A stretch of DNA of 64,000 bases from Candidatus Binatia bacterium (GTDB lineage: Bacteria; Desulfobacterota; Binatia; Bin18). The notes beneath the pieces are model-generated. The model did not search any database. It saw only the letters and a list, made by a program, of their open reading frames with translations, and was not told the origin of the DNA. Below are positions 1-26,136 of the stretch, piece by piece. The translations under genes and the position numbers were made by a program. The number at the start of each line of letters is the position of its first letter. Position 1 is the stretch's first letter. The stretch covers positions 1-64,000 of the forward strand of contig CAXXHG010000014.1 in assembly GCA_963666315.2 (NCBI GenBank). Reading direction: 5' to 3'.

Positions 1-921
1 GCGGGCCTTACGCGGTGAGAGGTAGTCTTCGATGAGGATGCCCGCGTCGCGCAACCCAGCATAGGCTCCGGGATAATAGTCAGGGATCTCTGTCGGCCCG
101 CTCGGGACACTCGAGCAGCACACAACGGGCACTCCGGTGTGTGCCAAACGAAAGAGGTGTTCCGACGCCGCTGGCGGGAGACTGCCCGCTCCCATGCTTG
201 CAACAACAAGTCCATTGAGCACATCGCTTGCGGCCAAGTTCCTGAGCAGCGCCGCGTCATCTCCCATACCCACCGTCAGTATTGGTACGGAAGACGGCAA
301 GACTGGCGGGATGCGGCTCAAACGGGAGCGCGGGAACGCGGGCCCGGAAAACTCAATCTGCTTCCCAGCGACTCGACCACGCACAGCTCCCCGCCGCGCG
401 GTAAAGGCATCCAGGGCCTGCGTGTCGGCTTTATACACACTCCAGGCCTCAAAGATTTCAGCCCGCATTGTCACCAGCGTGCCAGACTCTGCGGGAACGA
501 AAGCGGCCACCTGGAGGGCCTGCTCAAGGTTTTGAATCCCATCGAATTCCGGCGCCCAGCTGGGTCGCATGGCTCCGGTAAAGACAATCGGAAACACCCC
601 AGCAAGCATCTCATCAATGCCATACGCGACCTCTTCGAGCGTATCCGTACCGTGCGTCACCACGACACCACGGACGGGGTCTTGGGCTGCATGGGCTATG
701 CCCTGCGCAAGGCTGAGCAAATCGGTCCCTGACGATATGACAGCATCGGGATAGGGAAGATCCAGACAGCGAACCGTCTCCGTATCGATTGACGTCCGGG
801 CCAGCAGCTCCTCAGCAGTGAGGGCGGGCACACTCTTCCCCGTCTGTCCGTCACGTACCATGCTGATCGTCCCACCTGTGGCGATCAATAAGAGTTGTGA
901 CACATGTACGGCGCCAGTCAT
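1..921 (-). CDS. L-asparaginase/glutaminase family protein (3' end runs off the window)
   Basis: Not in the ORF track; translated by hand. MTGAVHVSQLLLIATGGTISM carries the ATGGT motif and VVVTHGTDTLEE the HGTDT motif. The ATG overlaps the egtD stop (ATGA at 918-921). Confidence 0.88.
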   Translation of the reverse strand, partial: MTGAVHVSQLLLIATGGTISMVRDGQTGKSVPALTAEELLARTSIDTETVRCLDLPYPDAVISSGTDLLSLAQGIAHAAQDPVRGVVVTHGTDTLEEVAYGIDEMLAGVFPIVFTGAMRPSWAPEFDGIQNLEQALQVAAFVPAESGTLVTMRAEIFEAWSVYKADTQALDAFTARRGAVRGRVAGKQIEFSGPAFPRSRLSRIPPVLPSSVPILTVGMGDDAALLRNLAASDVLNGLVVASMGAGSLPPAASEHLFRLAHTGVPVVCCSSVPSGPTEIPDYYPGAYAGLRDAGILIEDYLSPRKAR

Positions 922-1925
922 GTGTCGCTGGCAGTAGACGGTCCGTTGTAACGAAAGAGGTACATCACAAAGAGCTGTTGCGCATCCGTCCATTGCGCTT
1001 GAAAATGGAATCCGTATCCAGTCAATTGCTTCCGGACTTCTTGGGCATCAAATTTCCGGGAGATCTCCGTATGTATCGTTTCTCCAACACGAAACGACAC
1101 CTGCAAGTCGAGGTCAGGAATTGTCACTTCCTGCGCAACCTGACTCTGCAGATGCATCTCAATTTGATGCAGCTGCTGGTTATAAAAGGCCAGATGAGAG
1201 AACTGGGACAGGTTGAAATCCGCTCCGAGCTCGCGATTAATATGACGCAAGATATTGAGATTGAATGCCGCCGTGACTCCGGCGGTGTCGTTGTACGCCG
1301 CTTCCAAAACCGCAACAGACTTCCGCAGGTCCAATCCCAGCAAAAATTGATCCCCAGGATGGAGAGCCGCAGCTAGCTGCTGAAAAAGTTCAGCTTGTTC
1401 TGCCGGGCTGAAGTTCCCCAGATTACTGCCTAAGAAAAGGACAAGCCGGGGACGCGTGTTCGGCAAAGCGGTCAGCCCGCTCAGATAGTCCGTGGCCAAT
1501 GCCTTAATGGACAGCGTAGGATAATCGTTGAGCAAGCTGTGCGACGCCTCTTGGAGCATTGAGGCACTAATATCAATCGGCACATAGCGCATGAGGTGGT
1601 CACGGCGCTGATATTCGTCAAACAGGAAGCGGGTTTTCACAGAGCTGCCGCTGCCCAATTCGACCAGCATAGCCCCGTTCGTTTGCTCCACGATATCAGC
1701 GACATTGGTGCGTAGAATGTGTGCCTCCGTCCGGGTGAGATAATATTCCGGCTGCTGACAGATGTCTTCAAATAACTGTGAGCCGTGCGCATCGTAAAAA
1801 TATTTAGGATGCAGCGTTTTCTGTGTTTGACTCAGGCCAAAAGCCACATCCTCACGGAATTGCGAACGAATCTCGCCTGGCGTGGTAATCTGCAGACGAT
1901 GCGTGTCGTGCGATGCAGCTTGCAT
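918..1925 (-). CDS. egtD: L-histidine N-alpha-methyltransferase (hercynine synthase)
   Basis: KTLHPKYFYD..GSQLFEDIC..PEYYLTRTE, VELGSGSSVKT, FLGSNLGNF, AAYND..GVTAAFNLNIL, IHTEISRKF; adjacent to egtB and egtC. Confidence 0.93.
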   Translation of the reverse strand: MQAASHDTHRLQITTPGEIRSQFREDVAFGLSQTQKTLHPKYFYDAHGSQLFEDICQQPEYYLTRTEAHILRTNVADIVEQTNGAMLVELGSGSSVKTRFLFDEYQRRDHLMRYVPIDISASMLQEASHSLLNDYPTLSIKALATDYLSGLTALPNTRPRLVLFLGSNLGNFSPAEQAELFQQLAAALHPGDQFLLGLDLRKSVAVLEAAYNDTAGVTAAFNLNILRHINRELGADFNLSQFSHLAFYNQQLHQIEMHLQSQVAQEVTIPDLDLQVSFRVGETIHTEISRKFDAQEVRKQLTGYGFHFQAQWTDAQQLFVMYLFRYNGPSTASDT

Positions 1926-1950
1926 AGGAAATCTCTACTTTCACTATCAG

Positions 1951-3315
1951 TCAAGAAAGAGTGCGCCGGCTCACGGCGTGAGGCGGTAGAGACGTAGAAT
2001 CTTTGGCGCAGCGCAAGCCCGCAAAGATCGCCCGCATCCCAGGGTGATACCAATTACGAAACGTTGTCCGCGCAACATGCCACCGCGTTGCCCATGATCC
2101 GCCTTTCAGGACGCGGTGCTGCTGGTCAAAATACGGAACCGAATAGCCTGCATATGGAAAGGCCTGAAAACCCGGATACGGGTGAAACCAGGTATGCGTC
2201 CATTCCCATACACTGCCCAGCATGTCGAGACAGTCAGGCCGGCCAGCACCTTCGCCGTGGCTGTTGGAATCCCACGCGGCGGCCTTTTCCCACTCAGCTT
2301 CCGTGGGCAGACGCTTGCCAACCGAGCGAGCATAGGCATCGGCTTCATACCAGCTGATACACATCACGGGCAGTGTCGGGTCTAATGGTCCAGTTCGACC
2401 GAGACCGATTTCCATCCAATGCTCCCAACCAGCAGGCCAACCATACCCGCCATACCCGCCCTCGCTAGGATGGCCACGCGAACGCCAGTGCAGCGGGTGT
2501 CTGACTTGGTTTTCCGTGCACCAGCACCACCCCTCCTGGCTCCACCAGGCTGGATGAGCATAGCCTCCGCGCTCAATAAACTGCATGAAATCGGCATTGG
2601 TAACAGGAGTCCGATCAATCAAAAACTCCCCAACCTGGACGGTCTGTTGTGGCCGTTCATTATCCAGGGTGCTGGTCACATGATCACTGCCCATCCCAAA
2701 AGGTCCACCAGGAATACAGACCATCTCTGTTTGAGCAGACGTCCGTTGAAAATGCGCTTGTCGAGCATACGTTTGGCGCCGGACCGCACTGGAAGGGCTG
2801 GGCTGGGCCGGACAGCTGGAGACATCCGCATCGGATCGTGCGGCCGCACCCAGGTTGAGAATCAGGAGCATCGTTTCGTTGTGCTGCTCTTCATGTTGGA
2901 GGAGCATATTGAAGATGCACCCTTCAGACAGCAGCGGATGCGCTGCCTCCCACCCGCCCTGCTCAAGAAAGGCAAACACCCGATCCCGGACTACATCTAG
3001 ATAGGACAGGATCTCTCGCTGCGAGGGCAAGTTGATCCGGTTCTGCTTGGGAGTATCCAGCGGGGAGAACAACGTGTCGTATGCTGGAGCCAGAGGCGCT
3101 TCGTCTTGACATTGCTGGAGTATCCAAAATGATTCAGTCACCCCAATATGCCCCAGATGCCACCCAACGGGGCTGAACTCAGGGTGAACTTGGCGATAGA
3201 AGTCTTCCGCTTCCAGGTTCAACAAGAGCGACTTCGTATACGCGCGTGCCTCGACCATCTGCTGTCGGCAGTCAGCGCTGTCAATTATGTCGTTCATGTC
3301 GATTACGCCACTCAT
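1951..3315 (-). CDS. egtB: Ergothioneine sulfoxide synthase (DinB-like + FGE-sulfatase non-haem iron enzyme)
   Basis: SPVGWHLGH and QHEEQHNETM iron-binding His motifs; FGE-domain motifs DNERP, RLPTEAEWEKAA, GSVWEWT, LKGGSWAT, FRNWY. Start placed at the ATG just after the egtC stop (3315 or 3297). Confidence 0.9.
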   Translation of the reverse strand: MSGVIDMNDIIDSADCRQQMVEARAYTKSLLLNLEAEDFYRQVHPEFSPVGWHLGHIGVTESFWILQQCQDEAPLAPAYDTLFSPLDTPKQNRINLPSQREILSYLDVVRDRVFAFLEQGGWEAAHPLLSEGCIFNMLLQHEEQHNETMLLILNLGAAARSDADVSSCPAQPSPSSAVRRQTYARQAHFQRTSAQTEMVCIPGGPFGMGSDHVTSTLDNERPQQTVQVGEFLIDRTPVTNADFMQFIERGGYAHPAWWSQEGWCWCTENQVRHPLHWRSRGHPSEGGYGGYGWPAGWEHWMEIGLGRTGPLDPTLPVMCISWYEADAYARSVGKRLPTEAEWEKAAAWDSNSHGEGAGRPDCLDMLGSVWEWTHTWFHPYPGFQAFPYAGYSVPYFDQQHRVLKGGSWATRWHVARTTFRNWYHPGMRAIFAGLRCAKDSTSLPPHAVSRRTLS

Positions 3316-3320
3316 GTCGA

Positions 3321-4145
3321 TTACGCCGCTTCCGTCGCATCCGGACAACTCAGGTTCGTCACGTGTACGTCGAACGCGTTGCTGCATGTGATCAGATGCC
3401 CCGCGGGCACAGCCCTCCACTCGGGATCAGCGGAGAGTTTTTCCGAGGCAATGACGACCCCGTCGGGAAAAGCCGGGCTATTCGGCAAATAATACAGGGA
3501 GGGGGCCGGAGAGCTGTTGGCAAACCGCAGCACCGCGACATGCTCGCCATCAGACAGGGCAATATTCAGTGCCATATGCATCTGCCGCCCGTGTGTCCAC
3601 TCCAATAATTGCGCAACCGTTTCCTGTAAGGCTGCTACGAGCGTCTGCTGCGTGTACTCTCGGCCATGTAGAAAGTTCAACACCAGGGCAAAAATATGCT
3701 CGGAATCGGTTGTCCCCTGGATGAGTCGATAATATTCGTCACGCAGCGAGTCACGAATCTTGCGCAGCAAGGTATCCCGGAAGTTTTCAATAAAACCGTT
3801 GTGCATAAAGAGCAGGCGCTCATAGGTAAACGGCTGGCAATTGCTCTGATCAAGTCCAAAACCAGGCGTGGCGCTGCGCACATTAGCCAAAATACAATCC
3901 GAGGCAATATGGCGGCTCAACCCTGGCAGGTTACGGTCGTTCCAGATAGGAAGGATACTCGTATACACACACGGCGTGGCATCAAGCGCGCGGTTATACC
4001 AGCCTACTCCAAAACCATCCACATTCACCGTCCCGGCCGTCATCTCTTTGGGCTGATAACTCTGCTCTATAAGGGAATGCTCCGGCTCACTGATGACACG
4101 AGCCAGCAGCACCGGCTTGCCCCGATACACAACGAAACGACACAT
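3321..4145 (-). CDS. egtC: EgtC-type class II glutamine amidotransferase/Ntn amidohydrolase
   Basis: N-terminal MCR nucleophile, NVDGFGVGWY, PIWND.NL, VRSATPG, FMHNG, GTTDSE; directly upstream of egtB. Confidence 0.9.
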   Translation of the reverse strand: MCRFVVYRGKPVLLARVISEPEHSLIEQSYQPKEMTAGTVNVDGFGVGWYNRALDATPCVYTSILPIWNDRNLPGLSRHIASDCILANVRSATPGFGLDQSNCQPFTYERLLFMHNGFIENFRDTLLRKIRDSLRDEYYRLIQGTTDSEHIFALVLNFLHGREYTQQTLVAALQETVAQLLEWTHGRQMHMALNIALSDGEHVAVLRFANSSPAPSLYYLPNSPAFPDGVVIASEKLSADPEWRAVPAGHLITCSNAFDVHVTNLSCPDATEAA

Positions 4146-4154
4146 CGTATTAAG

Positions 4155-4202
4155 TCAAAAGTTCAAAGTTCAAAGTTTAAAGTTCAAAGTTCAAAGTTCA
4201 AG
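4155..4202. repeat. Heptamer tandem repeat (TTCAAAG)n, about 6-7 units
   Basis: tcaaaagttcaaagttcaaagtttaaagttcaaagttcaaagttcaag in the spacer between the ATP-grasp gene and egtC. Confidence 0.9.
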
Positions 4203-4232
4203 GAACATACTGGATTATCTTTTTTTCATTGC

Positions 4233-5438
4233 TTACCAGGGAGAATGCGCCGGCTGTTTGAGAAGACGGCGACGCAAAGCATCGGCTTCGGCATGAATGG
4301 CTTCGTAGCTTGGACCGAATAAGTCAATCTGCGCCAGGACGACGCCAAACTCACTCACTGGACGAATTTCCTGTCCTGGTTCGATATACAACGTAAGCCC
4401 GTCGATCTCGCCAGCACGAGTAAAGCCAAACAGGTTTTCTGCGACATCTTCGCCAAAGGTAATAAAGTTAAATTGCCCCCCAACCACGTCTGTCTGAGCA
4501 AGCTGCGGTTGCAGGTCTCGGCCGCACGCCAAGGCGAGTCCCGCTTCATAGATGCAGGCGCCCAGGCAGTTGCGGTACAGATTATAAAAGCACGTTGCCG
4601 CCCGTCCATTCACCTCGGTCAAAGTAACAGCATTGTCATGACACCAAAATTCGATATTGAAGAAGCCGTTATCCAGTCCGATATTGTCGACCGCCGCCAT
4701 AGTCTGACTGGTCAGCTGATCTTGGATATGAGCCGGCTGGCGCGAGGGCAGCGAAAAATTGTCAATGACTCGGGTCCCGGGATAGGTATTCGTGTCGGTA
4801 ATAGCCCATAGATGCGGCTGGTGATCCACCACCCAGCCTTCAACCGTCACCTGCGGTCCCTCAACAAAGTCTTCGACCAGCATGATCTCGCGGGCGGCCA
4901 GCGGAAATTTTTCACAATCGATATACCGCTCAAAAAATGGAAAATAGAGCGGCGACCAGGCCGGATATTCACGCCGCGCAACTGCCAGCGCACGCTGGAG
5001 GTCGTCCGGAGAGTCGAGCTTAAATCCCAGAATGCCAAGATTCAGCCACGGCGGCTTAAGATAACACGGGTAGCGCGTCAGCGTAGGCTGTTCGTCGGCG
5101 AGATCAATATATTCACACCGGACCGGATTGGGCTCGTACTGGCGACCGTAGTATTTGTGCAGACACAGAAAGACGGACTCCAGGCTGGGGCCGGGAAAGC
5201 CGAACTCCTCGCACAACACTGCAGCAACAATGTCCGCCACATCGCGCGAGTAAAAAACCGCGTCAATATGGTGCGTCTTAATATATTCTCGACACTGATC
5301 CGTATAGACGAGAAGATCGAGTTCAGGCGACGGCGTGCGCGGATTGAGCGGAGCGTCAAGCAGGTGAAAAGTGTGGCCGGAGATCTGAGCGAGCGCGCTT
5401 CGGTCACGTTGTGACGGGCAGGTTATCAACACTTCCAT
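4233..5438 (-). CDS. ATP-grasp carboxylate-amine ligase
   Basis: 401 aa; CLHKYYGR, YPCYLKP, MLVEDFVEGPQVTVEG, GFFNIEF, TEVNGR are ATP-grasp signature segments. Confidence 0.82.
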   Translation of the reverse strand: MEVLITCPSQRDRSALAQISGHTFHLLDAPLNPRTPSPELDLLVYTDQCREYIKTHHIDAVFYSRDVADIVAAVLCEEFGFPGPSLESVFLCLHKYYGRQYEPNPVRCEYIDLADEQPTLTRYPCYLKPPWLNLGILGFKLDSPDDLQRALAVARREYPAWSPLYFPFFERYIDCEKFPLAAREIMLVEDFVEGPQVTVEGWVVDHQPHLWAITDTNTYPGTRVIDNFSLPSRQPAHIQDQLTSQTMAAVDNIGLDNGFFNIEFWCHDNAVTLTEVNGRAATCFYNLYRNCLGACIYEAGLALACGRDLQPQLAQTDVVGGQFNFITFGEDVAENLFGFTRAGEIDGLTLYIEPGQEIRPVSEFGVVLAQIDLFGPSYEAIHAEADALRRRLLKQPAHSPW

Positions 5439-5547
5439 ACCACCACCCGGTTCTTCTCGATTACCTGCAGGCGTGAGCCTCTCACCACTTCGTTCCTACT
5501 ATGCCTATTGCAAATATGCTTTACTACCCTCGATTTTCGCAATCTCT

Positions 5548-5565
5548 TGATGCATAATTGCAGCA
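5548..5565. promoter_or_regulatory. Inverted repeat, probable LysR autoregulatory site
   Basis: tgaTGCA-taat-TGCAgca immediately before the LysR ATG in the divergent intergenic region. Confidence 0.4.
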
Positions 5566-6510
5566 ATGCAGGATTGGGATGATTTGCGGATCTTTCTTGC
5601 CCTTGTCCGCAAGGGCTCGATCCGGTCGGCAGCTGAGTCGTTGGATGTAGACAATTCGACGGTCTCCCGCCGTATCCGCGCGTTTGAGCAAAAGCTGGCG
5701 GTGCGTCTCTTCGAACGTTTACCAACAGGGTATACACCCACGTCTGCCGGAGAGGACATGCTCGATTCGGCCCAGCAGGTCGAAGAAGAGATCCTAGCTC
5801 TTGAACGCCGCCTGCTGGGGCAAGATAGGCGCCTCACCGGAGAACTCCGCGTCACCATGCCCGACCTGTTAGGCATGAAACTCCTGATGCCCGATCTGGC
5901 CACCTTCACCCAGACCTATCCAGGCATAGGTTTAGAGATCAATGTCTCGTATGAGCATTTAGACCTCACTAAACGTGAAGCAGATGTCGCAATCCGTCTC
6001 ACTGATAATATACCCGAACACTTAGTCGGCCAACGTTTGCTCCAGCAGGCAACCGCAGCCTACGCTTCGAGGACATATCTGGCGCAACACAATCTTGTAG
6101 ATGCTCCGGTGGATGATTCGGCCAGTCTGACCTGGCTCGGTTGGGATGATCTGGTGACGTACCCTAAGTGGGTAAAAGAAAGCAATTTCCCCACCGTGCC
6201 GGTCCGCCACCGCCTCAACAATGCAGTCCTTCAGCTCGAAGCCGTTAAGGTAGGACTAGGCATTGGTGTCCTGCCCTGCTTTATTGGCGACCAAGAGTCG
6301 AGCTTGCGCCGGCTCCCGCCCGGTAGACCCAAGCTCGGCAAGCATATCTGGCTTCTCACCCATCCCGACCTGAGCAACACTACCCGGGTACAAACGTTTC
6401 TCGACTTTATGGCCAGGGCCATTACCAGCCGGCGCGATTTGATCGAAGGTCGTTGTCCCCAACCACCTGCCCCCCGGACAAGCAGGAAAGCGCGCGCACC
6501 AAGCACGTGA
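5566..6510 (+). CDS. LysR-family transcriptional regulator
   Basis: MQDWDDLRIFLAL..GSIRSAAESL.VDNSTVSRRI..FE..L.VRLFER HTH; LTKREADVAIR in the substrate-binding domain. Confidence 0.95.
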   Translation: MQDWDDLRIFLALVRKGSIRSAAESLDVDNSTVSRRIRAFEQKLAVRLFERLPTGYTPTSAGEDMLDSAQQVEEEILALERRLLGQDRRLTGELRVTMPDLLGMKLLMPDLATFTQTYPGIGLEINVSYEHLDLTKREADVAIRLTDNIPEHLVGQRLLQQATAAYASRTYLAQHNLVDAPVDDSASLTWLGWDDLVTYPKWVKESNFPTVPVRHRLNNAVLQLEAVKVGLGIGVLPCFIGDQESSLRRLPPGRPKLGKHIWLLTHPDLSNTTRVQTFLDFMARAITSRRDLIEGRCPQPPAPRTSRKARAPST

Positions 6511-6584
6511 AAATATTCGGTCCTCACGTCATATTTTCTCCTTTTCCCGGTGTTGATGTTTGTCCGCCTCCGTTCCCCCGTCTC

Positions 6585-6617
6585 CAAGGTCTGCAGGTAC
6601 CCTGTCTGCAGACCTTG
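6585..6617. terminator. Perfect 12-bp hairpin between convergent genes
   Basis: caaggtctgcag-N9-ctgcagaccttg; no U-tract. Confidence 0.4.
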
Positions 6618-6620
6618 CCG

Positions 6621-7650
6621 TCACCCCAGCCTGCAGACGCTGCATGAGATCCACCTTGAATTGCGGAGATACGTTATAAAAAACGTGACTAGATTGCCGT
6701 TCTGTATGTGCTTGGAGACCTCCACGGTGAGCGTGCTCGACCAGATGCCGCGTCTACTCACCACTTGCGCTGAGAGCAGATCACATTGAAACTGCTGCGA
6801 TCCCGTCACATAGCCGACCGCGAGCGGTTCAAACGGGAAGAAACCGTCCGTCTGGAAGAACCCAGCGCTATAACTGAAGCCAACCGGACGCCTGTTGAGA
6901 AACCCCGCGTGACACCGGAGGGCCGGTTAATAAGTCATCCAGATCCTGGCGATTCAGCGTTACCTTGACTGCAACCTCATACGGAATGAGAGTGATGGGA
7001 ACACCGGAGCGCAAGACAAGATCGAAACACAACGGATCTGCCTCAAAGTTACGATCTCCCAACGACACGGGAAGAAGGGGGGTGGGCTGGAAGCGCTGTC
7101 CCGGCCGACGTCCGGCTACGGCAATCACACGGACGATCTGTCGGCGCAACTCCGGGTAGTGGACGAGAAAAGTCGCTACATTCGTCAACGGCCCGAGCGC
7201 GAGTATGGTGACCGGGCGGTGCGCAAGAATACGCCGCAGAGCCTCAGTAGCGGGAGTTTTCACAAAACCCTGGTCTGGACTCCGCGCGCCGGCATGAACG
7301 TGCGAGGGACACAGGTGCTGCGCTTGCGTACAACCAAACTGAGCGACTATACGCCGCGCAATTGCAGCAGCCGTGTCATGGTCGGTATTGCCAAAGATCG
7401 TACCAATCCCCACGATCTCAAGTTCCGGGGAGTTGAACGCCTGTATCAACGGCAGGCAGTCGTCCACATCATGCCCAAACCCTTCCCCACACGAAGGATC
7501 GGTATCAATCCAGACGGGAATCCGCCTGTTTCCGGATTGAGCGGCCCACACTGACAGGACAGAAAAGCTACTCAGCCCGATGAAGAGTGCCAGGTAGACT
7601 GGGACAAGCCACCTCTTTTTGATTCGGGACTGTTGAGCAAAGACAATGTG
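6621..7650 (-). pseudogene. Inosine/uridine-preferring nucleoside hydrolase, disrupted and possibly secreted
   Basis: WIDTDP..DVDD, GIGTIFGN, ILALGPLTNVA motifs. Premature stop at 6868; the upstream in-frame signal-peptide-like segment has no ATG. Confidence 0.7.
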
Positions 7651-7742
7651 GGAAGAAACGATATAGTGACCTCCACCATAAATTACATACTGGGTGCACG
7701 CTTGAGTCTAACTAGATGTTCTACACATGTCCTTGCCAAAGC

Positions 7743-7788
7743 GTAAAAGCTTGTAAAAGAAACCGGCGCAGATGTAAAAGAATGTAAA
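7743..7788 (+). promoter_or_regulatory. Two GTAAA-N5-GTAAA direct-repeat boxes (OmpR/CpxR-type)
   Basis: gtaaa-agctt-gtaaa at 7743-7757 and gtaaa-agaat-gtaaa at 7774-7788. Confidence 0.5.
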
Positions 7789-7884
7789 AACACCCAGCGT
7801 GTGAGAGAACGCCACGATAAACCTCTCGACTGTTGACGAAAGAAGAGGCATGTTCGAGAGAAGGGAGACTCTACAATATTCTTC

Positions 7885-8010
7885 TCCCCTCTTGAGAGCG
7901 CCTTCCTTTGGAAGGGTGCCACGTAGCGACGGGGTGTGTTTCGAGCCGGCCCGGCAACCCACCCTGTCCGCCGACCTTTGGTCGGACGGCCACCCCTCCA
8001 AGGAGGGGAT
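7885..8010. repeat. MITE/REP-like palindromic element, family A copy 1
   Basis: Shares tcccctcttgagag ... ccgccgacctttggtcggacgg.cacccctcc..ggaggggat with the copy at 41533-41643. Confidence 0.8.
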
Positions 8011-8062
8011 GAGAAGACAAAGAACTTTAGCAAAGCTGAAGCTATGTCCGAATAAAAAACTT

Positions 8063-8190
8063 ATGACAGCACTGCGAACATTTCTGAGGCAGCATCTGGT
8101 GTAGGGCGGGCTCTTGGCTGTCGTCATCCCGCTGGTTGTCATTCTCGGCATGCAATATTGGTCACTGGTCAGTCTTGAGCGCATGTCTCG
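8063..8190 (+). pseudogene. N-terminal membrane-anchor remnant (sensor kinase-like)
   Basis: MTALRTFLRQHLV*GGLLAVVIPLVVILGMQYWSLVSLERMS; in-frame TAG, ending at a (GTAGACN)3 repeat at 8190-8210. Confidence 0.3.
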
Positions 8191-8280
8191 TAGACGGTAG
8201 ACCGTAGACATTGGTACTCTTTTTGTTCTCCTGCTGAGAAGGCCGTTGTCCTCAGCAGGAGATGGTCGTGCACGACTGAC

Positions 8281-10575
8281 ATGACTGATTCATCTGATTC
8301 GTCCGAATCTGCCCGTTCTTCGCGGGTTTCCCCCCAAATCCTTATTTTCATATGCGGCTTGCTGTTGTGGACGCTCTGGCCGCGTACCCAGTTCTGGTCT
8401 TTTCTTGCGGCGTACGCTGTCGCCTGGCTTTTGCTCAACATCGCCCTGTACCGGACACACCGGCTGGTACTGCCACTCTCCGCATGGCAAGCCACCTTTG
8501 TTATTGCCCTGCTGCTTGCGGTCCCGCTTACTCAATTCGTCCACACGTTTGATCTTTTCCGGCGGGACGAGGGTCTGCGCGGAATACAGGAGCATATGAC
8601 TGATCGTTCCAAACTCGCATCGCTGCCCGCCGTCTTTCCTGCCGTTGCCTCTCACGACCGGCCGCAGCGTTTTTATATTTACGCCCCAGACGCCAAGCAG
8701 GTTACGCTGGGATTGAATACGCATATTTCGCTCCCGGCACAGCCGCTGGGACACGGCTTGTTCAGGGCAAACTATGACCCACGACGTGATGGATTCCCAT
8801 CAGATTCCGCAGCCTCTGTTCACATTGAGCTGAACGTTGATGGGCAGCATATCGAAAGACCGTTTGCCGTAGTCCAGCATCAAGCGCATCCGCGTTGGTT
8901 TGCGAGTGCGCCCCAACAAGGACTGGCAAGCACTGTTAGTGAAGAAACGGATGAACTATTCATCCTGTCCCGAACCGGGTTGAAACACCATATTCAAGTT
9001 GGAGACGCACCCACAGATACCGCGTTTTTCGACCAAGGCCGCCGTCTGGCGGTGACCCATCGCTATAGTTCAGCATTGTGGATTGTCGACGTTCATGCCG
9101 GCGAGGCTCTTTCTCAGATCCCGCTGTCTCCCTTTCAGGTTCGTGTGGTAACGAGCCCGGACGAGACTCGCCTTGCAGTTGCTATTGCCGGCCTGCGACC
9201 AGGCATTCAATTCCTCACGCTTCCGTCCGGACACCTAGAGGGATTTGTTCCGCTCGACTTTCCCCCGGATTGGACCGCTTTCGGACCTGACGCCAACACC
9301 CTGGTCATATCGAGCGCACAGACGCACGCGCTCTACACGCTTACACGCAGCCAGGAAACCCAGGCCTGGACACACGGTCAGCCGCTCCAGCTTGGCCGTC
9401 CAGTGGTGACGCTGGGCCGCGCTCTTGACGGCAAGCACATCTACCTTGCCACAACCGACTACCGACCCGACGGCAAAGAGCACCGCGGCAACCATTTTAT
9501 TCAAGATCAGATTCTGACTGTTGATATCCACCGCTGGGCCGTTGTGAGCCAGTTTCTCACCGCCCGACGCAGTGAGCGACAGACACGAGCTGGGAGTCTT
9601 AACCGTGGCGTCTCGCCCATGGGCATCATCGTTCGCCAAGACGGTGACCTGCTGATTGCTTTTGCCGGCACGGATGAAGTCTGGCAGCTAGAGCCCGACT
9701 TTCAAAAACCGCCGCCCATTATTGCGGGTACAGATCTCGATCTTATTGCCCCGCATGGCGTGGCCGACTTGGGCGCAGGCTATTGGGCAGTCTCTTCTCC
9801 GGCCGGTGGAGCCATGGCCGTGTATGATGCCTCCAATCAGATGGTTGCTTTCGAAGGTGTTGCACCGCCTGATGCTGAGCTAGCCACGGGAGATACAGAC
9901 TCTCTCAGTCGCTTGGCCTTACGCATTCGATCTGGAGAACGCGCGTTCTACGAGTCCACCCGGGCAGGCCTGGCCTGCCAGAGCTGCCATTTGCATTCCG
10001 GGACCGACTACAGCCCGCACGACATCGGTCAGCGCCCGCTCCTGCATACACTGACCGTGCGCGGAATCGCCGGAACTGCGCCGTATCTGAAAGACGCGAG
10101 CTTTCCGCGTATTCGCGATCTCAACGACCACCTCGCCCTCACCCTCTACCGTGGCTACGAACGCCTTGTGGAAGAACGCAATATCCTCTTGGAAAGCTAT
10201 GTGAAAAGCCTGCCGCGTGACGTGAACCCGATGTGGTTTGAAGAATCCAAACCTGAGCTTGGGCAAGCGGGTCTCCAGGTCTTTGTGAAAGCGCAGTGTG
10301 TCCGCTGTCACACCTTTCCGGCTTTTACGAATCTAAGCCAGCACCCCGTCCGGGCTGTGTTTCCAGACTATGGTGAAACACAATTGGCAACGAGTTTACT
10401 GGATACCCCCTCACTGCTCGGCATTCAGTCCGAGCCGCAGCTCCTCCAAGACGGACGGGCTCACGATCTGCAGGCGGTTCTCGATCAACACAACCCTTCC
10501 AATCGACATGGTGATACTGCCGTTCTCTCGGATGAAGAAAAGAAAGCGCTGATTTATTTCCTCAAGGCATTATAA
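8281..10575 (+). CDS. Membrane-anchored YVTN-type beta-propeller + di-haem cytochrome c (bCcP/MauG-like) protein
   Basis: Three N-terminal hydrophobic segments; propeller-like repeats (IQVGDAPTD, GVSPMGI); CQSCH and CVRCH haem motifs; DTPSLLG..QLLQDGRA.DL tail. Confidence 0.75.
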   Translation: MTDSSDSSESARSSRVSPQILIFICGLLLWTLWPRTQFWSFLAAYAVAWLLLNIALYRTHRLVLPLSAWQATFVIALLLAVPLTQFVHTFDLFRRDEGLRGIQEHMTDRSKLASLPAVFPAVASHDRPQRFYIYAPDAKQVTLGLNTHISLPAQPLGHGLFRANYDPRRDGFPSDSAASVHIELNVDGQHIERPFAVVQHQAHPRWFASAPQQGLASTVSEETDELFILSRTGLKHHIQVGDAPTDTAFFDQGRRLAVTHRYSSALWIVDVHAGEALSQIPLSPFQVRVVTSPDETRLAVAIAGLRPGIQFLTLPSGHLEGFVPLDFPPDWTAFGPDANTLVISSAQTHALYTLTRSQETQAWTHGQPLQLGRPVVTLGRALDGKHIYLATTDYRPDGKEHRGNHFIQDQILTVDIHRWAVVSQFLTARRSERQTRAGSLNRGVSPMGIIVRQDGDLLIAFAGTDEVWQLEPDFQKPPPIIAGTDLDLIAPHGVADLGAGYWAVSSPAGGAMAVYDASNQMVAFEGVAPPDAELATGDTDSLSRLALRIRSGERAFYESTRAGLACQSCHLHSGTDYSPHDIGQRPLLHTLTVRGIAGTAPYLKDASFPRIRDLNDHLALTLYRGYERLVEERNILLESYVKSLPRDVNPMWFEESKPELGQAGLQVFVKAQCVRCHTFPAFTNLSQHPVRAVFPDYGETQLATSLLDTPSLLGIQSEPQLLQDGRAHDLQAVLDQHNPSNRHGDTAVLSDEEKKALIYFLKAL

Positions 10576-10681
10576 TAAAGATGCCCACTTTGTCTGACAA
10601 GATCTGTTCACTTCTAGTTCCCTCGCCCCGTGGGAGAGGGCTAGGGTGAGGCTCTTTTTCGGCTCAGAAGAAACTCCAGCC

Positions 10682-11284
10682 ATGAACCAATCCACTGCTC
10701 AACAGCTCTCCAGAAGGATTTGTTTCACACTCGGGATCGTTCTCGCCGGGCTCTTTGCAGCAATTGCCGTTTTCATGCCCTACGCCGTGGCGCGTGAACT
10801 GTGGCTGATCCAAGCCACTGGCTACACCGCACTCGGCGCACTCTTTGTGGCACTGCTAACAACGCCGACACTGCGATTAGTTCGATATGCGACGGCAAAA
10901 AACCTCAACGTTGTTGTGTGGACTGCCTTTCGGCGCAGCTTTGGAATCAGCGCGGCTTGCTTCGCCAGTATGCATGCAGCCCTCACCCTAACGACCTATC
11001 TACAGGGCTCCTGGCCGTTCATCCTCACTGCTCCCTACCTCCGCGCCGGCCTGACCACGTTGACGATTCTGATTGTCCTGCTGCTGACTTCGTTTCCAAA
11101 GATCACTCGCCCGCTGCGCATTCACCTCTGGAAACAATTACACCGCCTGTCCTATATTGCAGCGCTTTTGCTTTTTCAGCACCTCATGCAATCGCCGTTC
11201 GCGTCTCGGCAACTGGTTATTATTCTTTTTGCGGGACTCGTTCTCTTCGGCTCGCTGCGGTTGCTGCCGGTGCGCAAGCAGTAG
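10682..11284 (+). CDS. MsrQ/YedZ-like ferric-reductase transmembrane haem b protein
   Basis: TGYTAL..L.TTP, RRSFGISA..FASMH, LLLTS, WKQLHRLSY..LL..H match the MsrQ pattern. Confidence 0.8.
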   Translation: MNQSTAQQLSRRICFTLGIVLAGLFAAIAVFMPYAVARELWLIQATGYTALGALFVALLTTPTLRLVRYATAKNLNVVVWTAFRRSFGISAACFASMHAALTLTTYLQGSWPFILTAPYLRAGLTTLTILIVLLLTSFPKITRPLRIHLWKQLHRLSYIAALLLFQHLMQSPFASRQLVIILFAGLVLFGSLRLLPVRKQ

Positions 11285-11297
11285 CCAACACCGTAGT

Positions 11298-11390
11298 CCC
11301 GTAGGTCGGGTTAGCGAAGTGTCCCCCGACACCCTGGCCTTGCTACCTCGCTCGCATCTCCCGGATTCGACTCCGTTGCATCCAGGCTAC
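11298..11390. repeat. GTAG-type REP pair (family B)
   Basis: cccgtaggtcgggttagcg..cccgacacc followed by an oppositely oriented ...tgcatccaggctac unit. Confidence 0.65.
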
Positions 11391-11431
11391 GATGTGGTGC
11401 TACAGTCCGCCATGTCTTGGAGAAACAGATA

Positions 11432-11560
11432 ATGGCTGCAGAAAGCATGCCCGCTTCGACCAACTGCAAAGGGGTCATGGTCTCCAGCACCTTCAAGACT
11501 TTAGAGCAGCACCGGGCCGCACTGATGAAGGCGCTCCAAAAGGAAGAACTCTTCGCCGTT
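11432..11560 (+). pseudogene. DUF4062-like N-terminal fragment
   Basis: GVMVSSTFKTLEQHRAALMKAL resembles the start of DUF4062 domains; the similarity then stops. Confidence 0.45.
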
Positions 11561-11671
11561 ACGTCGTTAGGCCCTTACTTTGCGGGCGGAGTTTGTTATG
11601 TCCGCACTGAGAACGGACGGACTTCCGACGGTACCGAGCTATTAATGTGGTCCATAAATTGGGGTAGCTGC

Positions 11672-12358
11672 ATGTCTCATCGCTATTACATTCTTCAAGA
11701 CCACCTCATTCACTTGCTCATCGCCTCGGTTGTGCTGTGGCTGGTCGGAGCACTGAGTATCCTCAGTGCTAGGGCGGAGGCCGGAGCGGGCCAGTCTAAG
11801 ACGAAAATAGCTGTCGAAATTGATGCGGACAGTGCCATCGGAAAGAAGGTGCTGAGCTATTTGGTTCGAGAGCTTGGCGAAATACCGGAGTTTGAAGTCG
11901 TTTCGTCGACTGAGAAGCCGGCCTATGTCTTCATGATGCTCGCAGTTCAAGAGACAGACAACAGCGACCAACCGGTCGGATATGCATTATCGACGCTCAT
12001 TGTGGAGCCCACATATTAACAGACTTATGTGCCGCTCGTTCGAACAGACGCAGACAAGGCGGCCATGGAGGCATCCGTGGTGCAGCTCCTGAGTGGCACC
12101 TATCATATCCTGTATCGTCTGCTTCACACCGGACCGCTAGAAAATCTAAAGTCGGCCTGTGAGGAAGTTGTCACCGACTTCCATGCGACGAGAATTAGGC
12201 TGCGACAGGAAGTCGCCAACGAACTACTGCGGAAACGGACGAAAGAAGCCCTACAGGTCGAGTTGCGTGAGCTGAAGGCTGTACGAGACCAACGACAGCT
12301 GCAGGTCAACGACACGGAAGAGCAGACAGAGCGGTATCGTAATCTGTGGCAGGACTGA
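11672..12358 (+). pseudogene. Secreted hypothetical protein interrupted by an in-frame TAA
   Basis: Signal peptide ..SILSARAEA; ORFs 11417-12019 and 12029-12358 share a frame and are separated by the stop at 12017-12019. Confidence 0.45.
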
Positions 12359-12408
12359 TGCCCAAGCCCGTATCTCTCGAAGCGTGGTCGCAACGTTATT
12401 ATCTTTAT

Positions 12409-12444
12409 CCCGTAGGTCGGATTAGCGGAGCGTAATCCGACACC
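12409..12444. repeat. GTAG-type REP (family B)
   Basis: cccgtaggtcggattagcggagcgtaatccgacacc palindrome. Confidence 0.75.
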
Positions 12445-12471
12445 ACAGGGCTGGAAAGGGAGAATTAGGCT

Positions 12472-13044
12472 CTACCAACGGTCGGCAAATTCGAGTGCGA
12501 CGGGTGTCACCGACAGGGACAGGCGGTCTAAGATATCCATCCCAAGCAGGAAGATTCCTGGTCTGGGGCTGACGGCGACGAGATGGTTCGAGAGTTCTGC
12601 AGAACCTAGGGTGAGTTTCGGCACGCGACCCACCCAACTCACGACGGTGCTGTTCACTCCGGTCATGAGCGTGTACTGCTCCGGCTGTATATCCAGGGCT
12701 TCCGCAAGAGCTTTATCAATAACGGTGATTTGCGCACCGGTATCAACCAACATTGAAACGTTGCGTGTCGCCCGCTCACTCTCGAAGGTCACATCAACAA
12801 ACTTGCGAGATGGGTCGCCGGCGCGGGTTTTGAGCGGGATGCTTCTATGCTGTGGGGGAGGCCCGGGTGCAAGCTGAAACGTCTTTACGCTGCCGGCCCG
12901 TGTGTCGGGGATCGTGGCGTTGGAGTAACGCCTGACGCCGTTCTCGTCGGTCCAGCTATAGATGTCAGCCTGAAGACCTGTCGGGCTGAGGACCAGAAAG
13001 AAGAAGGCCAGGAGTAGACAGCAAACACGCTTCGTCAAATGCAT
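12472..13044 (-). CDS. Secreted DUF4124 + retropepsin-like aspartyl protease
   Basis: Signal peptide, ADIYSWTDENGVRRYSN (DUF4124), catalytic LVDTGA, C-terminal LLGMDIL. Confidence 0.85.
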   Translation of the reverse strand: MHLTKRVCCLLLAFFFLVLSPTGLQADIYSWTDENGVRRYSNATIPDTRAGSVKTFQLAPGPPPQHRSIPLKTRAGDPSRKFVDVTFESERATRNVSMLVDTGAQITVIDKALAEALDIQPEQYTLMTGVNSTVVSWVGRVPKLTLGSAELSNHLVAVSPRPGIFLLGMDILDRLSLSVTPVALEFADRW

Positions 13045-13063
13045 CGTTATACCTTAGTTAATG

Positions 13064-13212
13064 CATCGGCAGCTGCCAAGGAAGGATTAGTAGGGAGCTT
13101 CCGGGGTCAGGTATAGGTACGGCTCTCCTCCGAAAGGTGGCGCCTTTACCAAAAGGCCGTCCCCGAAAACAGACCCATTAATCAAGTCTGGCCGTCTGAC
13201 TCCATTCCCCTC
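13064..13212 (-). mobile_element. Possible orphan IS110-family left non-coding end (no transposase)
   Basis: Minus strand reads ggggaatggagtcagacggccagact...ggcgccacct..ggagagcc...aagctccc...ctgccgATG, resembling IS110-type left ends as recalled; the ATG is followed at once by CAT TAA. Confidence 0.35.
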
Positions 13213-13314
13213 GAGACAAAGAACCTCCCTCCAGTCGGTAATGCCGCTGAGCACAACAAAACCATCTTGGCAGACTATATGAATATTTGTATACTTATAA
13301 AATGATTGGAGCAC

Positions 13315-13663
13315 TCAAACCAGTGGTCTGAATCAGGTTTAGTCGCCGCGACCTGCGGGCCATGCCGCTGCAGGTACGACGCGACATCGGCCAGGCGCTG
13401 TATGCTGCGCAGCGGGGCGAGACCGACCCAGCCACTAAGCCATTGAAAGGGTTTGGCGGCAGTCAGGCGGTGGAAATTTTTGAACGCTATCAGGCTGACG
13501 CCTATCGTGCGGTGTACACGGTGCAGTTTCGCGACTTGATTTATGTACTACATGTCTTTCAAAAGAAGTCGAGACGGGAAAGGCCGCACCGCAGAAAGAC
13601 CTCGCGTTAATAAAACGGCGGCTCAAGGACGCAGAACGAGACTACCGGGAAAGGCAGAACTAA
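13315..13663 (+). pseudogene. RelE/ParE (Gp49-like/HigB) toxin, inactivated
   Basis: LKPVV*I.., KPLKGFGG, YRAVYTV...IYVLHVFQKKS; TGA near the N-terminus and a frameshift before ..DLALIKRRLK. Confidence 0.8.
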
Positions 13664-13664
13664 C

Positions 13665-13994
13665 ATGACACACAAGAAAAAGCCCAGCGTAGAAGAGAGT
13701 AGCGGCAATGTCTTTACCGATCTCGGCTTGCCTCATCCAGACCAGGAACAGCTGAAGGCTCACTTGACGCTGCAAATCTATCGAACGATTACTGCGCGCG
13801 GTCTGACGCAAACACAGGCGGGAGAAATTCTGGGGCTCAAACAGCCGAATGTCTCTTTGTCGATGCGCAACCGCTCAGGATCGTTTTCCGTGGGGAAGCT
13901 CATGGGGCTGTTGACCAGGTTGGACCAGGATGTCCAGATTACGGTCCGGCCCGAGAAGCGTAGACAGGCGGAACTGTCTTTTGTGGTCAAATAA
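13665..13994 (+). CDS. XRE-family HTH antitoxin (HigA-like)
   Basis: ESSGNVFTDLGL, GLTQTQAGEILGLKQPNVS; directly after the toxin. Confidence 0.88.
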   Translation: MTHKKKPSVEESSGNVFTDLGLPHPDQEQLKAHLTLQIYRTITARGLTQTQAGEILGLKQPNVSLSMRNRSGSFSVGKLMGLLTRLDQDVQITVRPEKRRQAELSFVVK

Positions 13995-14098
13995 CGCAGG
14001 CAGCGCATTTTCAGCCCACTACGATTCCTTACTTTTTCTTTTCTCTGCTGGCAAGAACAGCTACATTACGAGACCAACGGAAAAGACAAGGAGCAAGC

Positions 14099-14536
14099 AT
14101 GCAACGCATCGAAGGCGGATGTCACTGCGGGAATATTCGGTATGAATTTTTGTGGCCGCTTGATGAGCCTGAAATTCCAGTTCGGGCGTGTACCTGTAGC
14201 TTTTGCCTGAAGCATGCAGGCACGTATACCTCGCATCCCGAGGCGGAACTCAACGCAACCCTTATCACTAAGACTCTCGTTCCCAAGTATCGCTTTGGGC
14301 ATGAAACTGCCGACTTCTATGTGTGTTCTCGCTGCGGCGTCGTAACATTTGTCGTGAGTCGGATCGATGAGCGTGATTACGCAGTCGTCAACGTTCATAC
14401 CTTTGAAAACATCGATCCCGCGAATTTCACATCTCGCACAACCAATTTTGACGGTGAGACACCAGAGAGCCGTCTCGATCGACGAAAACGGAACTGGACG
14501 CCGACGGTACGTATTACTGACTCCGGGAAAGAGTAG
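14099..14536 (+). CDS. GFA/CENP-V family Zn-binding protein
   Basis: GGCHCG..RY, CTCSFC.K, CSRCG motifs. Confidence 0.88.
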   Translation: MQRIEGGCHCGNIRYEFLWPLDEPEIPVRACTCSFCLKHAGTYTSHPEAELNATLITKTLVPKYRFGHETADFYVCSRCGVVTFVVSRIDERDYAVVNVHTFENIDPANFTSRTTNFDGETPESRLDRRKRNWTPTVRITDSGKE

Positions 14537-14632
14537 TTGACGCAAGCACCGCGCACGCTACTTTCAACAAGACAGTAGTCGCGACTCTCAATACGAGAGT
14601 AGTCGGTCCAGCACCACACAAAGGAGGCTTCC

Positions 14633-15211
14633 ATGCTGTTATATCTCGACAAAAAACGCGCTCCCAATCCGCGCAAGTTGCGCATCTATCTGGCGGAAAA
14701 AAAGCTGGATATTCCGATAAAAGAACTTGACCTGTATGCTGGGGAGCAAAAGACTCCGGAGTTTCTGGCGAAGAATCCGTTTGCCGGCGTCCCTATCCTG
14801 GAGCTGGATGACGGCACGGTGCTGATCGAGACTCTGCCGATTATGGAGTATCTGGAAGAACTCTACCCCGATCCGCCACTGGTCGGCACTGACCCCGTTA
14901 GCCGCGCCCTGGCCCGATCCTGGGAACGGCGGTGTGAGATCGGCGTGTATTTGACTGCGTCGCGCATGGTGCTGTCCAAAGGCGACGTATCCGACCAGGC
15001 ACGCAAAGTCCTGATGCATCGTTTGCCTTTGGTCAACGCTGGCCTTGAAGGCAAAGAATGGCTGGCCGGGAATTTTTCGATTGCCGATATCATGCTGTTT
15101 ATTGGCTTGGAGACCGCGCACCACGGCAAAACGTTTAGCCTTGATCCAGCCTGGACGAATCTGGTCCGTTGGTATGAGGCCATGAAGGCGCGGCCGAGTA
15201 CGTCGGCGTAG
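14633..15211 (+). CDS. Glutathione S-transferase
   Basis: APNPRK..I.L.EK, KNPFAGVPILELDDG..L.E, FSIADI. Confidence 0.9.
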   Translation: MLLYLDKKRAPNPRKLRIYLAEKKLDIPIKELDLYAGEQKTPEFLAKNPFAGVPILELDDGTVLIETLPIMEYLEELYPDPPLVGTDPVSRALARSWERRCEIGVYLTASRMVLSKGDVSDQARKVLMHRLPLVNAGLEGKEWLAGNFSIADIMLFIGLETAHHGKTFSLDPAWTNLVRWYEAMKARPSTSA

Positions 15212-15272
15212 GAAGTAAGAGCCCTTCATCCGCGTCCACTAAGGAGACGGAAACCTATCGCTTCTCTCTCTC

Positions 15273-16507: not shown

Positions 16508-16550
16508 GGGCGACCGGCCGGTCGCCCAGGCGAGGTCACCTCACCCCTAC
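16504..16550. repeat. GTAG-type REP-like palindrome between convergent genes
   Basis: gtaggggcgaccggccggtcgccc...cccctac; a similar unit lies at 40050-40097. Confidence 0.6.
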
Positions 16551-18082: not shown

Positions 18083-18304
18083 ACTGTCCCCTTTTTTCTT
18101 GTATGGAAATCCGTTCACAGTCGGCCTTCCCAGCCGTGTATCCTCTCGTGTCTAGCGCACTCTCGGTGGCCGCGTCCAGACAGACAACGCCCTATCTCTC
18201 TGTCACCTGGCTGTATTTGGCTGCACTTGGATTCACCTTGCCAAGCAGCAGCAAACCAAGTAAGACGGTGCGCATCATATATACAGGCACACAGGAGGCA
18301 GGGC

Positions 18305-24865: not shown

Positions 24866-25034
24866 GACCGTTATGTCCTCCGAGATTGCAGATTGTGCGA
24901 GAGCCCTACTCAGCGGAGCAGTTCTCTTCATGCAGCCAACCTAACTGATTTCATTGACGGCTCCAACCCCTCACCGCCCTCTTGTTGACAGGGTTTTCGC
25001 GACTTCTTATGCTCTTTCTTCCGTGAGTCCTCCC

Positions 25035-26108: not shown

Positions 26109-26136
26109 GGTGCGCCCCGCGAACCGAGAACAGGGC

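Follow-up and report, generated by a model that had tools for sequence, protein, structure and literature searches.

An ergothioneine-type operon of a Binatia family with an ATP-grasp ligase and an asparaginase-family enzyme at its two ends, a candidate tailoring pair

Does an ergothioneine-type operon that begins with an ATP-grasp ligase gene and ends with an asparaginase-family gene make ergothioneine by a different route, or does it do something further to the pathway's products? The question is raised by the first 64 kb of contig C14 (positions 1 to 64,000, hereafter the window), part of a 4.99-Mb metagenome-assembled genome (MAG) from the Binatia that is 92% complete. At positions 1-5438, on the minus strand, five genes lie head to tail in the order ATP-grasp ligase, egtC, egtB, egtD and asparaginase family. 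An earlier note on this DNA had assigned the ligase to the place of egtA and the asparaginase to that of egtE, i.e., as replacements for two steps of the actinobacterial pathway. We find that the five-gene synteny is conserved across a whole Binatia family and is undescribed in the searchable literature, and that its core is, by gene content, an ordinary and apparently self-sufficient module using gamma-glutamylcysteine (gamma-Glu-Cys), with the ligase and the asparaginase added at its two ends. What is new here is the pair of added enzymes; the ergothioneine biosynthesis core is ordinary. With a probability of roughly 40%, we suggest that the two work as a tailoring pair whose target is ergothioneine itself or a pathway intermediate that bears a thiol.

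Genes were identified with Pfam and with curated NCBIfam/TIGRFAM equivalog profiles at the cut-offs of the models. EgtD (918-1925), the L-histidine N-alpha-methyltransferase that makes hercynine, scores 384.8 bits against TIGR03438 (cut-off 290.9) and 388.6 bits against PF10017. EgtC (3321-4145), the N-terminal nucleophile (Ntn) amidohydrolase removing the gamma-glutamyl group, reaches 291.2 bits against TIGR03442 (cut-off 218.65); the protein begins Met-Cys, so that the Cys2 nucleophile is in place, and its best solved relative is 3MDN, followed by the M. smegmatis EgtC 4ZFJ. EgtB (1951-3315), the non-haem-iron sulfoxide synthase, contains the FGE-sulfatase and DinB_2 domains and scores 345.9 bits against TIGR03440 (cut-off 360), 281 against SenA and 133.9 against the OvoA N-terminal domain. 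Its best solved relative is the gamma-Glu-Cys-dependent M. thermoresistibile EgtB 4X8B (201.6 bits), ahead of the cysteine-dependent type-II enzyme 6O6L (154.9 bits). Tyr377 and Tyr380 of the M. thermoresistibile enzyme are kept, in line with a type-I (Tyr377) architecture. The first operon gene (4233-5438) encodes an ATP-grasp ligase (PF13535, 28.6 bits; cut-off 27) and the last one (1-921) an asparaginase/glutaminase-family amidohydrolase (PF00710, 144.9 bits; PF17763, 52.5 bits). The ligase gene is separated from egtC by 87 nt, egtC from egtB by 5 nt (with ATG 3315 as the start) and egtB from egtD by 25 nt, whereas the egtD stop codon (TGA, 920-918) overlaps the asparaginase start codon (ATG, 921-919) in an ATGA. 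It is this spacing that suggests co-transcription of the five genes. The window starts at the end of contig C14, with no sequence to the left of the asparaginase gene, which is broken off by the contig end after codon 307 of 328; the full-length protein is represented by P0125, 100% identical across those 307 residues.

To place the arrangement among relatives of the ligase, two scans with one genome per species yielded 41 loci encoding an ATP-grasp protein at least 69% identical to that of the window, and 35 of these, with at least 4.2 kb downstream of the ligase, could be assessed. All five genes are present in the same order in 33 of the 35, at ligase identities down to 69%; because so many loci keep the full order, the five-gene arrangement is not a chance juxtaposition. 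The exceptions are L029, where the ligase stands alone, and L034, which lacks egtB and keeps the ligase, egtC, egtD and asparaginase genes. Among closer relatives, in which the ligase is ~85% identical, EgtB and the asparaginase are only ~60% identical, making the ligase the most conserved protein of the operon. In an even sample of 121 Binatia genomes, the ligase was found in 15, namely the genome of the window and all 14 others of its family (here called f1), and in none of the 106 genomes of 18 other families. EgtC matches are present in 20 of the 121 genomes, including 14 of 14 f1 genomes, and EgtD matches in 87. Most Binatia thus have some ergothioneine genes, and the five-gene form occurs only in the family of the window. 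No description of this form, i.e., ATP-grasp plus egtCBD plus asparaginase, was found in the searchable literature. The earlier note was correct in every detail of the layout (five co-oriented genes, ATGA coupling and a LysR gene divergent across 127 bp), and the synteny that it named as a check is borne out, the order being conserved through one Binatia family in 33 of 35 loci.

Two side observations arose from these surveys. Many EgtD matches in other Binatia families (G018:C10:394460-395362, G009:C15:225994-226896 and about 30 more) lie within open frames of 700-1150 aa, which suggests that these long frames are bacterial EgtB-EgtD fusions of an Egt1-like kind. Separately, seven contigs with five-gene clusters of the Binatia type (L051, L005, L030, L034, L052, L027 and L028) carry labels such as Klebsiella pneumoniae, Enterobacteriaceae, Acidobacteriaceae or Methylomirabilota; judged by their genes, these MAG records are Binatia-like, and their taxonomy labels are probably wrong.

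Whether the two flanking genes replace steps of the pathway or were added to it can be judged from clusters in which they are missing. We inspected the 5-kb surroundings of an outgroup set of 55 loci, nearly all labelled cyanobacterial, which hold the nearest EgtC relatives beyond the family (47-52% identical to that of the window). There, egtB follows egtC in 46 of the 55 loci and egtD is nearby in 36, and no ATP-grasp gene of the window's type, no asparaginase gene and no GCS2 ligase gene occurs within 5 kb in any of the 55. Similarly, Binatia clusters from two other families (L081 and L082) consist of egtC-egtB and a divergent egtD, with neither the ligase nor an asparaginase nor egtA close by. 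These egtC-egtB-egtD modules share the genes and their order with the window and have no clustered egtA or egtE, gamma-Glu-Cys presumably coming from glutathione synthesis, as in the genome of the window; the difference is that the window's family has a ligase in front and an asparaginase behind, neither of which is seen in the 55 outgroup loci. Since the core stands without either extra gene in these loci and in the two Binatia clusters, the evidence argues for addition and not for replacement.

The rest of the genome is consistent with such a core. A plant-type Glu-Cys ligase, GshA (TIGR01436, 441.7 bits), is encoded on contig C39, outside the cluster, and a glutathione synthase, GshB (408 bits; cut-off 272), elsewhere in the same genome, so that the ligase is not needed as a substitute for EgtA. 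GCS2 genes were detected in 51 of 55 genomes of the family, including 30 of 30 high-quality ones, and never beside the five-gene cluster; with the EgtA model, whose cut-off is 370.8, the single GCS2 gene of the window's genome reaches 146.9 bits. The best genome-wide match to EgtE scores 67.7 bits against a cut-off of 400, 14 of 14 control genomes being similarly below threshold, and the EgtE-like matches in the window's genome are generic class-V aminotransferase-like genes only. In sum, egtB, egtC and egtD are present and adjacent in the order egtC-egtB-egtD, with a source of gamma-Glu-Cys elsewhere in the genome. Compared with the mycobacterial egtABCDE cluster, the window has equivalog-level EgtC and EgtD and an EgtB nearest to that of M. 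thermoresistibile with Tyr377/Tyr380 kept, whereas EgtA and EgtE are missing from the operon and Asp416/Arg420 of EgtB are replaced. The earlier note had rightly observed that the cluster contains neither egtA nor egtE, and the loci of relatives extend this to the region beyond the asparaginase gene. The check that it proposed, for gshA, egtA or egtE elsewhere, turned up a plant-type gshA, accompanied by gshB, and neither egtA nor egtE, which stay below their cut-offs genome-wide. The ligase-free egtC-egtB-egtD loci (the 55 together with L081 and L082) and GshA elsewhere argue against placing the ATP-grasp enzyme at the position of egtA; asparaginase-free core loci argue against placing the asparaginase at that of egtE, and we know of no precedent for an asparaginase fold acting as a C-S lyase.

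A related proposal, close to the main one of the earlier note, is that the ligase supplies the sulfur donor: it would make gamma-Glu-Cys or another N-acyl-cysteine for EgtB, which EgtC and the asparaginase would trim, and the product would be plain ergothioneine. The ligase gene is indeed first in the cluster, directly before egtC, in all of the 41 loci but one (L029), and the enzyme performs the same class of chemistry as EgtA. The donor pocket of EgtB seemed to point the same way. Asp416 of the M. thermoresistibile enzyme hydrogen-bonds the glutamyl part of gamma-Glu-Cys in the account of this site given in PMC11237966 (see also PMC4768315), and in every ligase-linked Binatia EgtB with coverage of this site (38 sequences) the glutamyl-binding residues are replaced, Asp416 by Tyr and Arg420 by Met, Val or Ile. 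We considered this change as a trait linked to the ligase and rejected it: in L081 and L082, Binatia clusters without the ligase, EgtB has Tyr at position 416 as well and Thr or Cys at position 420, so that the altered pocket cannot be linked to the ligase. GshA and GshB are present in the genome, and both the outgroup (55 loci) and two further Binatia clusters have the core without a dedicated ligase; taken together, this makes a donor-supplying ligase unlikely, and the properties of the ligase itself, described below, add to the case on both sides.

The ligase was modelled with AlphaFold2 (AF2) from an alignment of 15 sequences and compared with the PDB using Foldseek. The model is confident (predicted local distance difference test score, pLDDT, 89.6), and its top PDB matches are L-amino-acid ligases: BL00235 (3VOT; template modelling score, TM, 0.76), BacD/YwfE (3VMM, 3WNZ and 3WO1) and RizA (4WD3). 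Such ligases occupy ranks 1-5 and 7 (TM 0.64-0.76, E-values of 5e-22 to 5e-20), with PurT, PurK and PurD after them. BL00235, BacD/YwfE and RizA are thus the best structural matches, although their sequence identity to the window ligase is only 12-16%; by sequence, the best PDB match is a PurD-annotated protein (E = 0.0012). The 15-sequence alignment shows no variation at E263, E275, N277 and R279, the last three of which form an E-x-N-x-R motif of the Mg/phosphate-binding kind. Judging from the model, the ligase has a three-domain ATP-grasp fold nearest to that of L-amino-acid ligases, with this motif intact; no RimK-family match was obtained for it in Pfam or NCBIfam. Since this is the fold of alpha-dipeptide ligases, it speaks against synthesis of a gamma-glutamyl donor.

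The compounds that PCO/ADO enzymes oxidise are aminothiols whose amine is free (cysteamine and N-terminal cysteine), and this bears on the substrate of the ligase through its relatives. A sister clade of ligases from Thermoanaerobaculia and other Acidobacteriota (46-54% identity, ~49%) adjoins a PCO/ADO thiol dioxygenase gene in 22 of 23 loci, the pairing being seen in two different gene arrangements, and a gene for a ~420-aa protein in 21 of 23. The two activities are also fused, in the ligase-PCO_ADO proteins P0106 and P0245. A word-based search for fused ligases longer than 703 aa found none, whereas a profile search did find fusions, including more distant ligase homologues joined to flavin monooxygenase or SMP-30/gluconolactonase domains. 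Because the sister clade adjoins or is fused with PCO/ADO enzymes, which need the free amine of an aminothiol, cysteine or a cysteine-like acid is probably the conserved substrate of the ligase group, its carboxylate being joined to an amine. For the donor-supplying role considered above, this clade cuts both ways: it handles an aminothiol, and yet a free cysteine amine would make cysteine the carboxyl donor, the opposite of gamma-Glu-Cys synthesis.

Two further gene clusters with relatives of the ligase deserve a description. In Thermoanaerobaculia, the trio at L054 (8001-11026) and 20 similar loci (L056-L074 and L080) comprises the ligase, the PCO/ADO dioxygenase and the soluble ~420-aa protein; for the latter, no Pfam family and no usable Atlas match were found (pLDDT of the Atlas model, 0.35). 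The trio is probably an uncharacterised pathway of cysteine-dipeptide oxidation, to judge from its gene content. In Roseateles sp. DB2 (L079, 499-13255), a 33%-identical ATP-grasp protein is encoded with a nonribosomal peptide synthetase module, a flavin monooxygenase, a glutathione S-transferase (GST), an aminotransferase, a methyltransferase and a Peptidase_C26 gene of the gamma-glutamyl-hydrolase type. By its genes this is a putative natural-product cluster, so far uncharacterised, and its combination of a ligase homologue with a GST and a gamma-glutamyl-hydrolase-type gene is a point in favour of donor supply.

The occurrence of the ligase outside egt clusters also bears on a different view, in which the ligase, possibly with the asparaginase, would make a separate cysteine dipeptide, a second low-molecular-weight thiol, and be co-transcribed with the egt genes in a redox-defence regulon. 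The ligase alone in L029, the ligase with a thiol dioxygenase in Thermoanaerobaculia, and L034, without egtB yet with the ligase, egtC, egtD and asparaginase, all suit a parallel pathway, as does a divergent GST gene upstream in 30 of the 35 loci, often alongside a GFA-like gene. The arrangement fits it poorly, however: the egt core lies between the two extra genes, at distances of 87 nt and -4 nt, whereas those of a separate pathway would more likely be clustered together, the gene order is invariant across the family, and inside f1 the ligase is always paired with egtC in the class sample. We regard a parallel pathway as quite unlikely.

The asparaginase-family enzyme was compared with E. 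coli AnsB, whose residue numbering we use, in an alignment of 36 cluster-linked orthologues. The NCBIfam equivalogs all score well below their cut-offs (type II, 131.1 against 314.3; type I, 94 against 260.5; AnsB, 91.2 against 506; GatD, 74.9 against 310). T12, T89, D90, A114 and K162 are kept in 36 of 36 orthologues, which includes the catalytic set of Thr12, Thr89, Asp90 and Lys162. By contrast, the alignment of the 36 orthologues does not place identical residues opposite Ser58, Gln59 and Glu283', which hold the free amino-acid head group in AnsB, or opposite the lid residue Tyr25, the loops aligning poorly at ~25% identity. The apparent absence of Ser58, Gln59 and Glu283 was considered as a pointer to a novel substrate and rejected, since 63 generic relatives from other phyla differ equally. 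Identity is at least 48% inside the family and at most 39% to the next relatives outside, and none of the 63 asparaginase loci outside the family has egt genes or the ligase nearby. On these sequence comparisons, the asparaginase forms a distinct, apparently cluster-specific clade.

Could the two genes simply be passengers, a housekeeping asparaginase/glutaminase fixed downstream of egtD and a ligase with an unrelated role? PF00710 matches were found in 52 of 55 genomes of the family, as a single copy in 51 of the 52 and as two in G153, so that the enzyme is the sole PF00710 protein in nearly every family genome, as expected of a housekeeping gene; a second asparaginase in G056 was examined as a further one of the cluster type and rejected, being only 28% identical. 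That the catalytic residues and general sequence features are those of generic relatives, and that no RNA contig spans a junction between the genes, agrees with passengers as well. Against them stand the distinct asparaginase clade, found only next to egtD, the overlap of its start with the egtD stop codon and its gain in the same family as the ligase. Its PF00710 scores are also lower (114-147 bits) than those of the asparaginases of other Binatia families (165-215 bits). Overall, we consider passengers very unlikely.

For the reading that we prefer, a tailoring pair, the first steps would be conventional: from the curated family matches and what is known of the pathway, EgtD would make hercynine, EgtB would join hercynine to gamma-Glu-Cys supplied by the housekeeping plant-type GshA, EgtC would take off the glutamate, and a generic pyridoxal phosphate-dependent lyase would cleave the C-S bond. 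As for the ligase, it would couple an amine, from an amino acid or as ammonia, to the activated carboxylate of one of the pathway's thiol-bearing amino acids; the acid might be ergothioneine, or the cysteine moiety of either gamma-Glu-Cys or hercynylcysteine sulfoxide. The asparaginase-family hydrolase may supply ammonia, deamidate an added residue or remove an added group. The end product would likely be an ergothioneine-derived amide or dipeptide or, less likely, ergothioneine itself, reached through a doubly protected intermediate. The chemistry past the three Egt steps is proposed here from fold, gene neighbourhood and fusions.

Tailoring of this kind has a precedent in sulfoxide synthase clusters with ATP-grasp genes, whose products are thiohistidine dipeptides. 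Using a sulfoxide synthase as a hook, PMC13674229 (J Am Chem Soc, October 2026) describes in its main text ~100 clusters with ATP-grasp genes in 16 subfamilies, among them the ash and tgi clusters, from which Phe-2-thiohistidine (actinothioneine) and gamma-Glu-2-thiohistidine (thioglutine) were obtained. According to the same text, the synthases belong to an OvoA-like branch and use histidine, with no egtD, egtC or asparaginase involved. The ligases resemble RimK, except for one that resembles YbdK, and they acylate 2-thiohistidine at its free alpha-amine. The paper calls it exceedingly rare for compounds of the ergothioneine type to be tailored enzymatically. The main text of PMC13674229 mentions neither Binatia nor asparaginase, and a Binatia cluster could sit in its supplementary network. 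The window resembles ash and tgi in encoding a thiohistidine-forming sulfoxide synthase with an ATP-grasp ligase; unlike them, it has an EgtB-like synthase (345.9 bits versus 133.9 for the OvoA N-terminal domain), contains egtD and egtC, and has an L-amino-acid-ligase fold instead of RimK.

More specifically, the ligase and the asparaginase may have been gained together as one new step that modifies the carboxylate of ergothioneine or its hercynyl-cysteine precursor, either by Asn/Gln-dependent amidation or by ligation of an amino acid with subsequent deamidation; we regard this proposal as fairly unlikely. Asparaginase-type and ligase activities are paired in known systems: GatD/GatE combines an asparaginase-fold ammonia donor with a ligase, and carbamoyl-phosphate synthetase an ATP-grasp enzyme with a glutaminase. 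The likeness lies in the joint gain, in the window's family, of an asparaginase-type enzyme and an ATP-dependent carboxylate-activating one; the difference from these glutaminase-ligase pairs is that the two genes of the window differ in evolutionary rate and stand far apart, one at the start and one at the end of the operon. If the proposal is correct, the operon would yield a hercynine-based (N-trimethylated) thiohistidine amide or dipeptide, the first of its kind to be genetically encoded, and the asparaginase would be the second asparaginase-fold protein serving a ligase, after archaeal GatDE.

Several points weigh against a tailoring pair. The substrate cannot be read from sequence. With egtD present, the alpha-amine that the published ATP-grasp enzymes acylate is blocked, and the carboxylate of a betaine would be an unusual substrate for a ligase. 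The L029 ligase, 69% identical to that of the window, has no egt gene within 8 kb, the egtD gene of that genome lying ~2 Mb away, so that the ligase can work outside the operon, and the Thermoanaerobaculia relatives of the ligase are likewise not next to egt genes. Nor do the differences of the asparaginase from E. coli AnsB at S58, Q59 and E283 point to a novel substrate, as ordinary-looking relatives in other phyla share them. Sequence change has been faster in the asparaginase than in the ligase (~60% versus ~85% identity in closer relatives), and such unequal rates argue against a tight two-subunit complex. Finally, none of the RNA contigs from the marine metatranscriptome X19, described below, reaches across a gene junction, and carried-over DNA could be their source.

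The known tailoring cases all begin from unmethylated 2-thiohistidine, whereas the Binatia operon, which occurs in all sampled genomes of a family of marine and soil bacteria, combines the full pathway based on hercynine with an amidohydrolase and a ligase of another structural class. Should the two enzymes tailor the product, betaine-type conjugates would be added to the known chemical space of thiohistidines, and a ligase family that probably prefers thiol amino acids would come into view, its PCO/ADO-linked sister clade being itself uncharacterised. If only ergothioneine results, the operon would be an example of a glutathione-producing bacterium that modifies the precursor supply for ergothioneine.

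The surroundings of the operon differ between the window and its relatives. The divergent LysR-family regulator gene (5566-6510, plus strand; PF00126 and PF03466) is separated from the ligase gene by an intergenic region of 127 nt from the coordinates of the open reading frames (ORFs; 5439-5565). A LysR gene is found upstream in 1 of the 35 related loci only, the near-identical relative L004, and is thus species-specific and not a conserved part of the cluster. The divergent GST seen in 30 of the 35 loci is often accompanied by the GFA-like gene and a BT1-family transporter of the major facilitator superfamily (MFS). In the window, tblastn with the proteins of the relatives located this block on the plus strand at 14087-16486 (GFA-like, 79% identity, 14087-14533; GST, 92%, 14633-15205; BT1, 81%, 15314-16486), ~8.6 kb from the operon (5439-14086), whereas in the relatives it lies directly upstream of the ATP-grasp gene. 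The stretch 5439-14086 looks like an insertion. It contains, besides the LysR gene, a truncated nucleoside hydrolase gene (6868-7551, profile positions 1-207 of 297), a 764-aa ORF without a family (8281-10575), a ferric-reductase-like gene and a gene for a retropepsin-like aspartyl protease. At the other end, the asparaginase gene of the relatives is followed by a convergent luciferase-like monooxygenase gene in 16 of 32 loci and by an MFS transporter gene in 2 of 32.

DNA near-identical to the window occurs in metagenomes from marine water, sediment and vents. Short contigs of X19 match parts of the asparaginase gene (472-719, 3 mismatches), egtC (3537-3754, 8 mismatches) and the ligase gene (5036-5209, 0 mismatches), and the contigs of X19 and X20 together touch parts of four operon genes. 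No gene junction is bridged by the RNA contigs of X19 and X20, and X23 gave no match. Scans for consensus promoters and for terminators were at chance level (5 found versus 3.9 expected, none of them called within 5439-5565, and 4 found versus 6.2 expected, respectively).

Within the operon, the spacer between the ATP-grasp gene and egtC contains a heptanucleotide tandem repeat (4158-4201; GAACTTT on the gene strand, 6.3 copies). No stable RNA structure was predicted for this spacer (z = +1.8), and in most relatives it is much shorter than 87 nt. One DNA contig of run X1, which runs through the whole stretch, has 7 nt, i.e., one heptamer, fewer at 4158, so that the copy number varies between close strains. 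The open frame of egtB reaches 3420, and orthologues align from about residue 45, which makes ATG 3315 (or 3297) the likely start. An imperfect direct duplication of ~18 nt at ~3293-3328 (16-nt core GGCGTAATCGACATGA) crosses the egtC stop codon and yields these two in-frame ATG candidates. Farther along the window lie an amidase gene (16547-18118) and, at 24954-27557, adjacent genes for a LuxE-like acyl-protein synthetase and a LuxC-like acyl-CoA reductase, a fatty-aldehyde-forming pair.

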